A stretch of DNA of 64,000 nt from Octopus vulgaris (taxonomy: Eukaryota): contig OX597835.1 in NCBI GenBank assembly GCA_951406725.2, forward strand, positions 20,336,001-20,400,000. Reading direction: 5' to 3'. The position numbers and the translations under genes were made by a program. How positions within the stretch are numbered: the first letter of the stretch is position 1; each line of letters starts with the position of its first letter. Under the pieces are notes generated by a model that worked only from the letters and a program-made list of their open reading frames with translations, had not been told where the DNA came from and did no database searches. Below are positions 14,428 through 45,535 of the stretch, one piece after another.

Positions 14428-14669
14428 TATAAGTATATATATATGAATATAAGTATATATATATATATATGAATATACATATAAAAGTAAATAAATGGCA
14501 CAACGAAGTACCGATATTTACTGGAAAATAGCGAACGTAATAAATACGACGCTAATATATAGCTTCACTGCGTATGTACTAGTAAAGATGCGTGTGTGCA
14601 ACAAACATGAAAAAAATTCTCTTACCTCTAGGAAGAACATCTGAAAAATGAAAAACCTAGAAACGGATA

Positions 14670-14741
14670 ATGGAGTACCGGTTTCAGATTCTTCAAAATA
14701 TGTTTGCCAACGTATATTTGATTTTTCTTCATCAGCAGCAT
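14670..14741 (-). ncRNA. Type I hammerhead ribozyme motif, copy 1
   Basis: Minus strand: atgctg CTGATGA [aga...tcaaatatacgttggcaaacatattttga...tct] GAAA ccgg TA ctccat. Core intact, palindromic CCGG in helix III, stem I partly decayed. Confidence 0.75.
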
Positions 14742-15098
14742 ATACCTCGACAATATTTCAAAGGTTGCCACATCTATGCCAGTACACTCGTCTGAACGCC
14801 AAAACGTTAACAGAACGAGATCAGTGAAGAAGTTTCAATGAAAATAGTAATGCAATACGAGAGTATTGCTTTCCAGTAAAGGATAGCCCGTGAATGTAAA
14901 ATCATACCTATAAAAGTAAATAAATGGCACAACGAAGTACAGATGTTCACTGGAAAATAGCGAACGTAATAAATACGACGCTAATGTATAGCTTCACTGC
15001 GTATGTACTAGTAAAGATGCGTGTGTGCAACAAACATGAACATAATTGTCTTACCCCTAGGAAGAACATCTGAAAAATGAAAAACCTAGAAACGGATA

Positions 15099-15170
15099 AT
15101 GCGGTACGGGTTTCAGATTCTTCAAAATACGTTTACCAACGTATATTTGATTTTTCTTCATCAGCTGCAT
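15099..15170 (-). ncRNA. Type I hammerhead ribozyme motif, copy 2
   Basis: Minus strand: atgcag CTGATGA [aga...tcaaatatacgttggtaaacgtattttga...tct] GAAA cccg TA ccgcat. Stem I pairs 5 of 6; long stem II. Confidence 0.78.
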
Positions 15171-15423
15171 ATAGCTCGACAATATTTCAAAGGTTGCCAC
15201 ATCTATGCCAGTACACTCGTCTGAACGCCAAAACGTTAACAGAACGAGAACAGTGATGAAGTTTCAATGAAAAATTATTGCAATACGAGAGTATTGCTTT
15301 CAAGGAATAGATAGCCCGTGAGAGTAAATGTATATATATATATATATATATGTATAGATGTATATATATAATGTCAGTAAAACCTAAACCCTAAAGAGAA
15401 GCACACTCTGACTTATGATGATA

Positions 15424-18540: not shown

Positions 18541-19574
18541 AATAAAACGAAGAAGAATTGCGCAAAAATTCAAATATGTCCTGAGATGGTCAATATAACA
18601 ATAACTGGTCAGTTACATGGGTTTTAATAAAGGAACACACATGTTGGACACTGCTTAATGCTGTCCATTTTTTCCTATAATTCTCTTTGTTAGAAAGGTG
18701 TTGCTTCAAAAAACGAGAAACCTTTCAAAATAATCCTCATAATCTAATTTCCATTTCACTTTTCATACGAAAAAGAAGTCCTTGAAGAACGGAGATAAAT
18801 TGATAATATCATTTAAGATGCTTATGGTAAGCTTCAAAGTCTCTATTTTCATGAAATAAGACTTTAAATTTAAGCGCGCACATGAGATTTTGCAACATCT
18901 TTCCCGCAGGCAAATAGAGGCATTTAAGACGGATGTATCAAGTGATATTACAGTTAAAGTTATTGTCACAAATTAATGCCAAATTTCTACAGAGAATCTA
19001 TAATCTTTGTATTTGTTTGCTTGTTTGTTTGTTGCTTTTTCAATTTCGGTAAATTTGTTTTCATTAAAAAAATGTGGAAGACGTCATAATAATAACTGTT
19101 TATGATTTAGAGACAATGCGAGCAATTTTAATGAGAGAAAATATTTCAAATTCATTAAATATAAAATTCTTGTCTCCCTCCTACATATATTGTTTTAAAA
19201 CACTTCGCTCCTGGTATTATACTGCTGCCAATGTATCATGCATGACACTTAAGTGATTATTTGAATACAATACGTGTTATTTTGCAAATAGTTGACATAT
19301 ATATCTTTTTTTTTTATTTTTGCATGCTTTTTCTTGTTTTAGTCATTAGACTGCGAAAATGCTGGAACACCACCTAGCAGAATTTATAGTCGAATATAAG
19401 ACGCATGTACTTTAATTCTTAAAGCCTGGTACTTATTTTATCGATCTCCTTTGGAGGACCACTAAGTTATATATATATATATATATATATTTCGTTTTTG
19501 GATTTGGTTTACAAGCTTCTTTATGGGAGTTCGTGTGTTGAAACATATTATGTTGTGTCTGGGGAGAGTCATTT

Positions 19575-20330
19575 TCTTACTGCGCGAGTTAGTGGAGATT
19601 ATGTCCGAAGACGCCTTGTGGGAGAACCTGAGCTACGATGAAAATCAGTTGATCAAACTGTTCAGGAGAGCTTTCGCGCCGGGATATCTGGATAATTACC
19701 AGAAATCCCTAGCTTGGCAGTGCTTCCGTGCGGCGTTACCTGTTTGCGATAAGCTGTCCAGGCACCGCAGTGCCGTCTCGCCGACCTGTCCGAGGTGCGG
19801 GCTACACAGAGAAACCGTCTTGCACCCATTTCTGGTGTGACCGGGATTAATGGGACTGATAGCTTTCGCAGAACAACTGTTGTCATCGATGCAAAGAATA
19901 CAGCTATCAGCTGAGTCTATCATCGAGACTGTGCCGCCTCTTCCCTCAACAGGGTGAAGAAGGCTTGCTTTTTCTGCGTGGTAGCTATACGGAAAGAAGC
20001 AGTATGAAAGACGCGTGTGAAAGGAATAGTATCTGGCCAGGGGCTGGTTAACATTTTTGGTTACCACCTCAGTAGTAAGATCAAGCTGGAGAAGAGGTAC
20101 CTGTCACGAGAATGATTAGAGAAAAGATGGAAGCTTGTGGCAAAACAGCTGGGAGCGATTGGCACCAAGTAAGTGGAGCCCCAGAAAAAAGCAAAGGTTC
20201 TACCCCGGTGGTCGTGTGCCTTCCCTTCAGGAGATGCATTGCATATGGCAATGTGATATCATCGAACTTTTAAATGTTTAGTGTAATTTGAATCGTAATT
20301 GTTAATCGTAACCTATCATTCATGAAAAAA
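19575..20330 (+). pseudogene. L1/Tx1-clade LINE 3' fragment (zf-RVT region) with 3' UTR
   Basis: KSLAWQCFRAALPVCDKL...CPRCGLHRETVLHPFLV* followed by a stop-interrupted C-terminus ending ...EKRWKLVAK. Fits the CCHC zinc-binding C-terminus of L1/Tx1 ORF2. Confidence 0.7.
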
Positions 20331-20360
20331 GAACTTTTAAATTGTAGCAGCTTCTTCACA

Positions 20361-20646
20361 TAGCTAACTAAATATAGACACATATAGAGGAATGCGCATG
20401 CGCAAATAAAGACACATACAAAATGCAAAATGGCTGACCGTTAGTAAGGAAAGACGCACAAATAAGAAAGGAGAAAGCAAAGGACCACTGATGAGGTCAC
20501 AGGAGTGTGACGAAAGAACTCTGGCCGAAATTAGATTAAGATTAATGTAAAAAATAAATAACGCTGAAGCAAAGTAACACAAAATATATAGTGCGTGTGT
20601 TTTTATTGGCTAAACTGGCAAAATGACCATACCTAAATACAACAAT
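20361..20646 (+). mobile_element. 286-bp non-coding insertion with 12-bp TSD carrying a hammerhead motif
   Basis: Perfect direct repeat agcttcttcaca at 20349-20360 and 20647-20658; hammerhead core in the middle. Confidence 0.72.
20483..20526 (+). ncRNA. Minimal type I hammerhead ribozyme motif
   Basis: g-a-cca CTGATGA g gtcaca-ggag-tgtgac GAAA gaac TC tgg-c-c: full core, perfect 6-bp stem II, stem I cca/tgg. Confidence 0.8.
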
Positions 20647-20724
20647 AGCTTCTTCACAATTTTACGTTTATTTGTCCTTGTTTGTCCCCTCTTTGTAATG
20701 CTTGTATAGCAAATTTTTATGTAA

Positions 20725-21181
20725 AAATGAAGTTTGCTTCCCATCGCATGGTTCCGAACACAGTTATGCTACGTAGCACGATAGGCAAGTGTCTTTTATT
20801 ATAGCCTCGTGCCTACTACAACTTTCTGAGTGCATTTGGTAGAGGAAAACTGAAAGAATCCCGATATATATATATATATATCTTTATATATAAAAGTGAA
20901 GTTGTGTGAGTGTCTGTCTCCTACGATTTAGATTCCTAACTACTCCCACATTTTGCGGTGCAGTTTAACCCAAAGCGGGTATCTTATAGTCGTGATTCAT
21001 ATCGAGCCCTTCTGGGTATTAGCGCGCGTCTACGATGAGTCTACGATTAAAAAAAAAATTACCTTCATTTTCCCCCATTTTTAATGCATTTTTTTGCTAA
21101 CATATAAGGGAAGTAACTCTCTAAAAATGCTTATATAGTTATTTCCCTTACATGCCCGAGCAACGCCGGGCGATACTGCTA

Positions 21182-21234
<53 letters not shown>

Positions 21235-21460
21235 ATTAATTTTGTGTGTGATTCTGTGACTGTTCCTCGCATCATCAGTTGACAACCGATACTAGTGTGT
21301 TTGTATTCCCGTAACTTAGGGTTTCCCAAAACAGACCGATAGGATAAGTATTTGGCTTACAAAGAATAAGACCTGGGGTCGATTTCTTCGAGTAAAAACC
21401 CTTAAAGCGGTGCTCCAGCATGGCCGAAGTCAAATGGCTGAAGTAAGTAAATGAATAAAA
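20725..21460 (+). mobile_element. Older SINE family A copy split by a Helitron in its internal (TA)n
   Basis: 5' half ~20725-20870 and 3' half ~21260-21460 are colinear with family A. Confidence 0.7.
20881..21182 (+). mobile_element. Non-autonomous Helitron, second copy
   Basis: TC start, cccgagcaacgccggg hairpin, CTAG end; homologous to 15972-16339 but lacks its internal duplication. Confidence 0.85.
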
Positions 21461-21659
21461 GAATATGTGTATATTTCCATTTGTGTATCTCTCTACACAT
21501 GCGTATGCGCACATACACATTTAGCGCGCGCACTCATTTGCATATATGTACATATAAAAGGAAGATACAGACATCGATAAGGAATGATTTAGACTGAAAG
21601 AGGGAGACAGTACTTCGTGAACGACAATGAATGTATATATACGTATGTATGGACGCATG

Positions 21660-21702
<43 letters not shown>

Positions 21703-21815
21703 TTATATATGTTTGTATGTATATGTATGCATGTTTGTATTATATGTATATATATAAATGTGTGTATGTATATATATATATATATATGTATGTATATGTA
21801 TATATGTGTATGTAC

Positions 21816-21871
<56 letters not shown>

Positions 21872-22182
21872 CTGTTACTCTGAGTTTCTCTGTATGACAG
21901 TATATATATATGTATAAAGAAATGGACTATATATAAGCGATAAACATATATATGTACATATATCTGTATTATATATTATACATATATATAATATATATAT
22001 ATGTACGTATATATATATATATATATGAACATATATATGTATGCATATAATATATGTATGTGTATAAATATATGTATGTATGTATATATATATGTATGTG
22101 TATAAATATATGTATGTACGTATGTATATATATTATGTACATTTGTATATATATACATATATATATATATACATACATATAC

Positions 22183-28247: not shown

Positions 28248-28293
28248 TCTAGACTGATGATGGGCAAGACCCAGAAACATGCATGTCTCTTGA
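28248..28293 (+). ncRNA. Minimal type I hammerhead ribozyme motif
   Basis: tctaga CTGATGA tggg-caaga-ccca GAAA catgcatg TC tcttga: intact core, GUC cleavage triplet, palindromic helix III, stem I 5 of 6. Confidence 0.82.
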
Positions 28294-40649: not shown

Positions 40650-41705
40650 ATATTAAGGCTAATTAGAAGATAGAGTACTTGAAAAAGAAATATAAACAAT
40701 ATTAAAGTTTGTGTAAAAACGTTATTTGGGTAAAAACGTTATTTAATCTTAAGGCTAATTAGTGGATAGAGTATCTGAAAATGTATTAGCAATATTAATA
40801 TTATATTAGAGTGTGGATAAAAACGTTGTTTAATCTTAAGGCTAATTAGGAGATAGAGTATCTGAAAATATATTAGCAATATTAATATTATATTAGAGTG
40901 TGGGTAAAAAAAACGTTATTTAATCTTAAGGCTAATTTGGAGATAGAGTATCTGAAAATATATTAGCAATATTAATATTATATTAGAGTGTGGGTAATAT
41001 TAAACGTTATTTAATTTAATCTTAAGGCTAATTAGAAGACAGAGTATCTGAAGAATTATTAACAATATTAAAACAATATTAAACGTTATTTAATTTAATC
41101 TTAAGGCTAATTAACAATAATTATTAACAATATTAAACAATATTAAACGTTATTTAATTTAATCTTAAGGCTAATTAGAAGATAGAGTATCTGAAGAATT
41201 ATTAACAATATTAAAACAATATTAAACGTTATTTAATTTAATCTTAAGGCTAATTAACATTAATTATTAACAATATTAAACAATATTAAACGTTATTTAA
41301 TTTAATCTTAAGGCTAATTAACAATAATTATTAACAATATTAAACAATATTAAACGTTATTTAATCTAATCTTAAGGCTAATTAACAGTAATTATTAACA
41401 ATATTAAAAAATTTTAAACGTTATTTAATTTAATCCTAAGGCTAATTAACAATAATTATTAACAATATTAAACAATATTAAACGTTATTTAATTTAATCC
41501 TAAGGCTAATTAACAATAATTATTAACAATATTAAACAATATTAAACGTTATTTAATTTAATCTTAAGGCTAATTAACAATAATTATTAACAATATTAAA
41601 CAATATTAAGCGTTATTTAATTTAATCCTAAGGCTAATTTGACGGTATCAATATTAAACGTTATTTAATTTAATCTTAAGGCTAATTAGAAGATAGAGTA
41701 TCTAG
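40650..41705 (-). repeat. Tandem array of 15 monomers (48-96 bp, mostly 64 bp) upstream of ORF1
   Basis: Core (t/c)taaggctaatt at 40653, 40749, 40836, 40926, 41022, 41101, 41165, 41244, 41308, 41372, 41436, 41500, 41564, 41628 and 41676. Confidence 0.93.
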
Positions 41706-45015: not shown

Positions 45016-45399
45016 GGAAGCACTCCGTCGGTTACGACGACGAGGGTTCCGGTTGATCCGATCAACGGAACAGCCTGCTCGTGAAATTAACGTGCAAGTG
45101 ACTGAGCACTCCACAGACACGTGTACCCTTAACGTAGTTCTCAGGGATATTCAGCGTGACACAGAGAGTGACAAGGCCGGCCCTTTGAAATACAGGTACA
45201 ACACAAACAGGAAGTAAGAGTGAGAGAAAGTTGTGGTGAAAGAGTACAGCAGGGTTCACCACCATCCCTGCCGGACCCTCGTAGAGCTTTTGAGGTGTTT
45301 TCGCTCAATAAACACTCACAACGCCCGGTCTGGGGATCGAAACCGCCATCCTACGACCGCGAGTCCGCTGCCCTAACCACTGGGCCATTGCGCCTCCAC
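45016..45399 (-). mobile_element. SINE family B, full length
   Basis: Homologous to 2079-2464. Confidence 0.9.
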
Positions 45400-45416
45400 A
45401 TCTATATTTATATTTA

Positions 45417-45535
45417 TCTTACGGCCATATCACGTTGAAAGCAACGGTTCTCGTCCTATCACCGAAATTGAGCAACGTCGAGCTTAGTTGGTACTTAGAT
45501 GAGGGACCGCTTGGGAAACCTAGGTGGTGTAAGCG
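45417..45535 (+). rRNA. 5S rRNA dispersed copy, probably a pseudogene
   Basis: 119 nt: (t)cttacggccatatcacgttgaaagcaacggttctcgtcctatcaccgaaattgagcaacgtcgagcttagttggtacttagatgagggaccgcttgggaaacctaggtggtgtaagcg. Follows the metazoan 5S consensus with paired ends (cttac/gtaag), several substitutions in the internal control region, and a T-run about 10 nt downstream. Confidence 0.9.

Follow-up and report, generated by a model that had tools for sequence, protein, structure and literature searches.

The window, i.e., the whole 64-kb stretch of Octopus vulgaris DNA that was analysed, harbours a short insert which carries a hammerhead motif, is framed by a 12-bp direct repeat and, judging from the flanking frame, sits in an old LINE. 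The insert and its surroundings comprise the following features:

19488..19575, minus strand: 88-nt 3' tail of a sister family among the Penelope-like elements (PLEs), an independent insertion (MTLPRHNIICFNTR...) that adjoins (TA)n and served as outgroup
19584..20348, plus strand: left portion of the host repeat, the eroded 3' end of a LINE-like element that holds a zf-RVT-like frame
20349..20360, plus strand: left copy of the 12-bp target-site duplication, from the sequence and the comparison with paralogues
20361..20363, plus strand: TAG, three bases without a match in the family, whose alignments begin at 20364
20364..20646, plus strand: pseudo-LTR (pLTR), assigned by family alignments as the 5'-truncated 3' end of a PLE
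20482..20526, plus strand: minimal type I hammerhead, from the sequence, the structure evaluation and the fit to the min-HHR of PMC4209133
20623..20646, plus strand: start codon and first 8 codons (MTIPKYNN) of a 1,308-aa ORF with reverse transcriptase (RT) and GIY-YIG domains
20647..20658, plus strand: right copy of the duplication, whose first A equals the next base of the element too
20659..20890 (right end approximate), plus strand: host repeat, right part, continuous with the left part in paralogues

The 12-mer AGCTTCTTCACA was found at 20349-20360 and 20647-20658, with a spacer of 286 nt between both copies and no third occurrence on either strand of the 64-kb window. Since the window is rich in repeats, with 974 overlapping word pairs (12-mers, 100-400 nt apart), mostly in satellites, a 12-mer repeat at such a spacing is not rare by itself. 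The insert was absent from all 19 host-repeat paralogues fetched, in which both flanks match, and the 12-mer was single in each of the 11 whose junction was printed. Further, the terminal A common to both copies in the window occurred in none of these 11 junctions. A single 12-mer in the paralogues together with a terminal A specific to the window copies excludes a chance repeat; the 12-bp repeat is a true target-site duplication. The perfect duplication around 286 bp described in the first-pass annotation was hence confirmed, with empty paralogues as the evidence. Regarding the empty site that it had suggested looking for, the paralogues showed the single 12-mer, whereas an orthologous empty allele was seen in none of four public runs (three organism labels), and the filled left junction was present in 4/4; contigs from such runs can show that a sequence is there but not that it is missing, and the source sample may itself be among the runs. 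One contig of run X4 skips 20349-20646; considered as an orthologous empty allele, it was instead read as a paralogue on account of 31 differences and 4 gaps relative to the window.

The target of the insertion appears to be an old LINE, as suggested by a Pfam zf-RVT match in the host repeat (E=1.4e-5; 26.1 bits, slightly below the cut-off of 27.5). At the 5' junction, the last four bases of the left duplication copy, CACA, match the (CA)n run of the element and are a possible microhomology, and the TAG that follows likely consists of untemplated bases. The hexamer ATAGCT was also observed across both junctions (20360-20365 and 20645-20650); the 3' junction may have served as template for the three unmatched bases at the 5' side, or the likeness may be due to chance.

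A search of the genome (2.8 Gb) with the insert yielded 2,360 first-look candidates, and the 40 that were scored were 89-93% identical. In 29 of 29 other loci the copy ran on in the 5' direction beyond where the left repeat lies in the window, crossed an AT-rich 3' UTR and then entered the end of a GIY-YIG frame. When 30 loci were chosen by the GIY-YIG coding region, the segment then followed in 28 (in 2 of these only in part), and several reached back into an RT. From 3' to 5', first-look candidates numbered 2,360, 2,152, 1,264 and 452, obtained with queries that differ in length and subfamily. At the other end, the last 24 nt of the insert are the first eight codons of the PLE ORF, and position 20646, where these codons end, coincides with the short 3' end of the family. 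Identity of the insert to young intact elements was 87%. The insert is thus almost certainly the 5'-truncated 3' end of an autonomous 4.6-kb PLE, likely generated by target-primed reverse transcription. Being a dead fragment like thousands of others from a known element class, it is by itself ordinary.

The first-pass annotation had described a retrotransposed, non-coding monomer of a ribozyme element family. A retrotransposed, hammerhead-bearing insertion is indeed present, while the monomer of a small element had to be given up: homologues extending past the direct repeats, which the annotation itself had listed as counting against its proposal, were observed in all 29 other loci. Nor is the segment wholly non-coding, with an ATG at 20623 that opens the PLE ORF. 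The annotated lack of a tRNA head agreed with a negative tRNA gene search of 19000-22000, and a tRNA-derived SINE was rejected on the same result. A 14.5-kb repeated unit, with which the insert had been contrasted, gave no self-match at that offset within the window.

The layout of complete copies was seen in six regions chosen by the ORF start, mutually 98.4-99.6% alike. Each carries two hammerheads 4,583-4,598 nt apart, and in five of them an open ORF of 1,308-1,309 aa with the start MTIPKYNN lies in between. The family is accordingly arranged as a pLTR-ORF-pLTR tandem, with one hammerhead per pLTR located 135 nt upstream of the ATG, and has the pseudo-LTRs from partial tandems, first ORF codons included, that are a feature of PLEs. 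Locus L066 showed the order inverted piece, pLTR with hammerhead and ORF, and at L194 over two units stand head to tail. Arrays of this kind, made of intact 4.6-kb elements that are very young, were also observed at L194-L199 (e.g., G000:C19:14371500-14381400). The family, with 1,333 exact copies of the youngest ribozyme, has been active recently and may be active still.

The ORF contains RT motifs including YVDD (Pfam RVT_1, E=1e-4 to 5e-4) plus, at its C-terminus, a GIY-YIG domain (Pfam, E=3e-4), both below the curated cut-offs, and a 36%-identical homologue passes the GIY-YIG cut-off. With the whole 1,308-aa protein as query no Pfam family scored, and a comparison with solved structures gave no match. 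A search for homologues returned 267 at E<=1e-10, the best of which is labelled Octopus vulgaris and is 91% identical. The N-terminal half is rich in Asn, Ser and Gly, and about 100 residues separate RT motifs A and B'. A linker of the type CX4CxxC (CTDNYCTVC) is followed by a short spacer to the next Cys, a spacing that by eye looks Nematis-like. A CCHH motif in which two Cys lie between GIY box and YIG box (VVYSIRCIEGRCSNKTVTYVGET...EH...QH) was recognized by eye against Fig. S2 of PMC8557442. Motif B' reads GAAIGVSIAG and differs from the nematode Nematis and Neptune rows compared (PMC8557442).

The ribozyme of the window copy has the core CUGAUGA (20488-20494, with A9 at 20494), an extra G at 20495, a perfect stem II of 6 bp closed by G-C (20496-20501/20506-20511), GAAA at 20512-20515, a stem III of two pairs and a stem I of 5 bp plus one bulged A (20482-20487/20522-20526). 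The CUC triplet occupies 20519-20521, and the cut is predicted after C17 (20521). All elements of the minimal motif, i.e., CUGANGA...GAAA...UH, G10.1-C11.1 and an extra nucleotide before stem II, are present, in line with the intact minimal hammerhead with a 6-bp stem II of the first-pass annotation, which both sequence and structure evaluation upheld. An Rfam search detected no hammerhead family at the gathering score nor at E<=10, and the fold of the insert was not unusually stable (folding z of about -1.1). Positions 15.2-16.2 and loop 3 (A-G-AA-C-U) are not palindromic, and a hypothetical hammerhead dimer would have four pairs and two A-A mismatches. Minimal hammerheads of PLEs are weak in vitro and may need a protein (PMC4209133, PMC11167929; review PMC6765202). 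The internal position of the ribozyme, which the first-pass annotation had connected with a circular or multimeric template, follows from the cut site lying about 125 and 180 nt upstream of the family's two 3' ends; neither a circular template nor permutation is needed to account for it.

The ends of 57 copies, i.e., the window plus 60 loci chosen by the exact 37-nt ribozyme after 4 duplicates had been dropped, were then compared. The 3' end was short, as in the window, in 33 copies and carried a tail reaching about 56 nt further in 22, the last 2 being broken, so 55 of 57 end at one of two fixed positions about 56 nt apart. A second set of 94 copies comprised 57 short ends and 37 with the tail. 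The 5' ends of the 57 copies were scattered from -46 to beyond -2,000 relative to C3, and 17 copies had an inverted 5' partner. Hence, with two fixed 3' positions and scattered 5' ends, the ends are not circularly permuted, as the first-pass annotation had proposed to examine. Among the 53 copies with both ends resolved, 38 adjoined a microsatellite; in the remaining 15, the window included, a flank match of 8-14 bp was found in 8, vs. 10 of 210 control pairs, and 7 had no clear duplication. The same PLE anatomy is described in PMC8557442, PMC3846280, PMC4209133 and PMC11167929, and the octopus family's pair of 3' ends corresponds to the two internal sites at which the RT of an anole PLE was shown to start in vitro (PMC11167929).

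If the insert were instead a non-autonomous, non-coding retrozyme monomer copied from circular or multimeric RNA, its copies should have permuted ends. Its 286 nt, low G+C content, type I hammerhead and large duplication fit the non-LTR retrozymes (PMC7229834), an origin of retrozymes from PLE pLTRs has been proposed (bioRxiv 10.64898/2026.07.22.740005), and the genome lists contain a few same-strand hammerhead pairs 310-500 nt apart. However, both the 57- and the 94-copy sets combine fixed 3' with scattered 5' ends, and none of the 57 copies has a second same-strand hammerhead within 1.5 kb, and hence none the tandem 150-450-bp monomers with a hammerhead in each that define retrozymes. Moreover, PLE 3' UTR and ORF lie upstream and the ORF start lies downstream, in place of a non-coding, ORF-independent unit. 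We consider the retrozyme monomer very improbable, and this reading as largely refuted. A solo pLTR as the remnant of recombination is hardly credible either, nor is a decayed fragment that a repeat flanks by chance. Recombination or deletion has been reported to produce solo pLTRs (PMC3846280), and recombination of a truncated upstream pLTR with the downstream one would yield an identical sequence; yet lone short copies are the commonest form of the family. As to chance, the abundance of 12-mer repeats in the window is outweighed by the paralogous empty sites with their single 12-mer and by the terminal A lacking there.

A PLE origin is also compatible with a full-length circular RNA as template, formed when the hammerheads of both pLTRs cleave and the ends are ligated, which PMC4209133 proposes for PLEs. 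Such a template would leave identical junctions in any single copy, arrays with over two head-to-tail units occur (L194), and the hammerhead core is complete in the window's subfamily. Older-type copies chosen by their 3' end (94 distinct ones among the first 100 of 881 matches listed) were compared: 52 run through the ribozyme core, and 3 have a 5' end within 1 nt of the predicted cut, where about 0.7 would be expected. Clusters of equal or larger size nevertheless occur elsewhere (five ends at +47 and four at -48; a further six at -137 reflect alignments that break off at the (CA)n run), and a pile-up of 5' ends at the cut site was rejected. In addition, none of 25 ORF-start-bearing copies starts at the cut site, all tandem-forming young elements have C9, and in the anole PLE hammerhead mutants insert normally in vitro, with no reads ending at the cut in the accessible data (PMC11167929). 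A circular template is therefore unlikely in our judgement, while the linear route to a 5'-truncated PLE end remains the preferred reading.

By the preferred reading, the GIY-YIG domain would have nicked the target, as extrapolated from known PLE biochemistry, and the RT would have begun internally on the RNA, using the first of two initiation points within the first codons of the downstream ORF. From there it would have read about 283 nt, the uncut hammerhead included, before an early stop at the (CA)n run. The junction would have been formed with the 4-nt microhomology and 3 unmatched bases, and a second nick 12 bp away would have given the 12-bp duplication. The template RNA may have been uncut at the window hammerhead or else cut and re-ligated, both with the same outcome in a single copy.

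The window copy is a dead fragment of an older subfamily with the canonical A9 core. The first-pass annotation had counted on a core conserved among copies, and this did not hold at position 9. Exact 37-nt ribozymes in the genome, with inverted partners tallied separately, numbered 179 for A9/C17, 1,459 for C9/C17, 1,333 for C9/U17, 47 for T9 and 2 for G9. Among 27 copies chosen by the ORF alone, C9 was found in 24 and A9 in 3, and the other core positions were kept in 26-27. At 25 ORF-start-bearing loci, retrieved with a C9 copy as the query, C9 was present in 24/24 upstream hammerheads, 20 of which had U17 too, and all sampled intact elements had C9. Rare substitutions amounted to 2.1% in A9 vs. 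1.1% in C9 copies (23 vs. 23 copies, p=0.008), and mean pairwise distances were 5.1% (A9/C17), 3.0% (C9/C17) and 1.0% (C9/U17; 22 copies chosen by another route). Diagnostic sites change step by step on the way from the type of the window copy to the young type, and a few A9 copies sit on a young-type background. In a tree of 115 copies, A9 and C9 clustered (6 changes vs. 37 when shuffled), with weak support and with position 9 included in the alignment.

The sister PLE family (loci L149-L168; 1,176 first-look candidates), which shares the ORF start, the tail and the inverted partners, has a minimal hammerhead of the U3-A8 type some 110 nt upstream of the ATG and keeps A9 at the homologous place (12 matches, 11/20 loci). 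Since the sister family keeps A9, C9 is likely derived. By these comparisons, A9 is the older minority state, and C9, then C9 with U17, mark the younger subfamilies.

The change to C9 is predicted to weaken the self-cutting of RNA from the younger, commoner copies. Changes of A9 strongly lower the rate of hammerheads, and our literature searches for cleavage data on A9C found none. Described as invariant, A9 makes a sheared pair together with G12, the general base (PMC2553840; core as defined in PMC3088659). All representative motifs in the supplement of PMC4209133, as far as accessible, have A9, but that search was built on the conserved core, so their uniformity is no proof that C9 is rare. 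The C17-to-U change was rejected as a sign of loss, U17 being common among published PLE hammerheads (accessible supplement of PMC4209133; NUH rule, PMC9217987). Trapping of G12 by C9 in a Watson-Crick pair was given a predicted probability of just 0.07 and was discarded, as was selection on the hammerhead, for which an old and a young copy gave no signal (2 changes in 45 nt inside vs. 13 in 224 outside).

Tentatively, we put forward as a possible history that the active lineage broke its ribozyme by A9 to C, whereby G12 lost its sheared partner, and afterwards went through two larger amplification waves in which multi-unit tandems were still built. If this is true, hammerhead cleavage and RNA circularisation would be dispensable for PLE retrotransposition and for tandems, with the evidence residing in the genome, and the window copy would be a fossil of the earlier, ribozyme-intact state. 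The role of hammerheads in PLEs is debated, from processing and circularisation (PMC4209133) through dispensability in vitro (PMC11167929) to mere passengers (PMC8557442), and one family with a dated series of A9, C9 and C9 with U17 offers a natural test of whether PLEs need the ribozyme. Searches that demand CUGANGA miss about 94% of the exact copies counted in this genome.

Some other features were observed in the window and at related loci. A hammerhead-like motif at 28251-28292 (plus strand; CUGAUGAU) adjoins (TA)n and has a 3-bp stem II, an extra A before GAAA and a palindromic stem III (ACAUGCAUGU) followed by UC; by BLAST it is unrelated to the window's PLE family. At 45417-45535 (plus strand), next to a dispersed repeat of about 385 nt (45016-45400), lies a sequence that resembles 5S rRNA (72.9 bits in Rfam) and in which several pairs are broken, possibly a pseudogene or a 5S-linked repeat. 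The window also contains a satellite of diverging units of about 64-96 nt (40650-41688), a direct duplication of about 426 nt whose adjacent copies are 94% identical (14475-15328) and, throughout, SINE-like dispersed repeats in families of 230-460 nt along with numerous (AT)n tracts. Upstream of a window-family copy at L064 (1339-2060, plus strand), a 241-aa RT frame belongs to another Penelope-type family; its motifs, compared by eye, presumably recall Hydra/Naiad RTs. Pairs of same-strand ribozymes or 3' ends 310-500 nt apart (G000:C6:28669776/28670272, C14:7979080/7979420 and L214/L215) are possible short pLTR tandems and, as such, a step towards retrozyme-like derivatives.

Regarding known systems, a literature search for octopus PLEs with hammerheads retrieved only Craig et al. 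(PMC8557442), whose accessible part holds two Octopus Naiad families (2/4 octopus hits); the family may already be catalogued in Repbase or Dfam. The same study (Craig et al. 2021) describes Neptune/Nematis-type PLEs that are alike in the single RT and GIY-YIG ORF, the CX2-5CxxC linker, the two Cys inside the GIY-YIG core, the partial tandems of pLTRs with inverted 5' copies, the optional tail, the preference for (TA)n and the hammerhead within the pLTR. Compared with these elements, the octopus ORF of 1,308 aa is long, with its Asn/Ser/Gly-rich N-terminal half and some 100 residues from A to B', and the tail measures about 56 nt vs. the 30-40 bp described for PLEs. Relative to the metazoan PLE minimal hammerheads (Cervera and De la Pena 2014, PMC4209133), the window copy has G as the extra nucleotide where the consensus has H, positions 15.2-16.2 are palindromic there and not in the octopus copy, and the octopus majority, C9, falls outside the consensus CUGANGAH.

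The Poseidon element PAc of Anolis carolinensis (Frangieh et al. 2024, PMC11167929) likewise has two 3' ends in the ORF start, downstream of the hammerhead, which define an optional tail, and AT-rich targets. In PAc, however, the ATG overlaps the ribozyme and reverse transcription starts 111-118 nt into the ORF, whereas the octopus ATG lies 135 nt downstream of C3 and the ends fall within the ORF, some 24 and 80 nt from its start; the CX2-5CxxC linker that the octopus PLE has is absent from Poseidon. Penelope of Adineta vaga (Arkhipova et al. 2013, PMC3846280) shares the first ORF codons in the pLTR, the optional tail, duplications of 8-10 bp, insertion into a non-LTR element and Asn-rich ORF stretches, and is described there as low in copy number, in contrast with the thousands of copies and the stepwise series of subfamilies in the octopus. 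Finally, the metazoan non-LTR retrozymes (PMC7229834, bioRxiv 10.64898/2026.07.22.740005) resemble the insert in their length of about 300 nt, type I hammerhead and large duplication; they are non-coding tandem monomers (PMC7229834), whereas the octopus insert is a fragment of a coding element.
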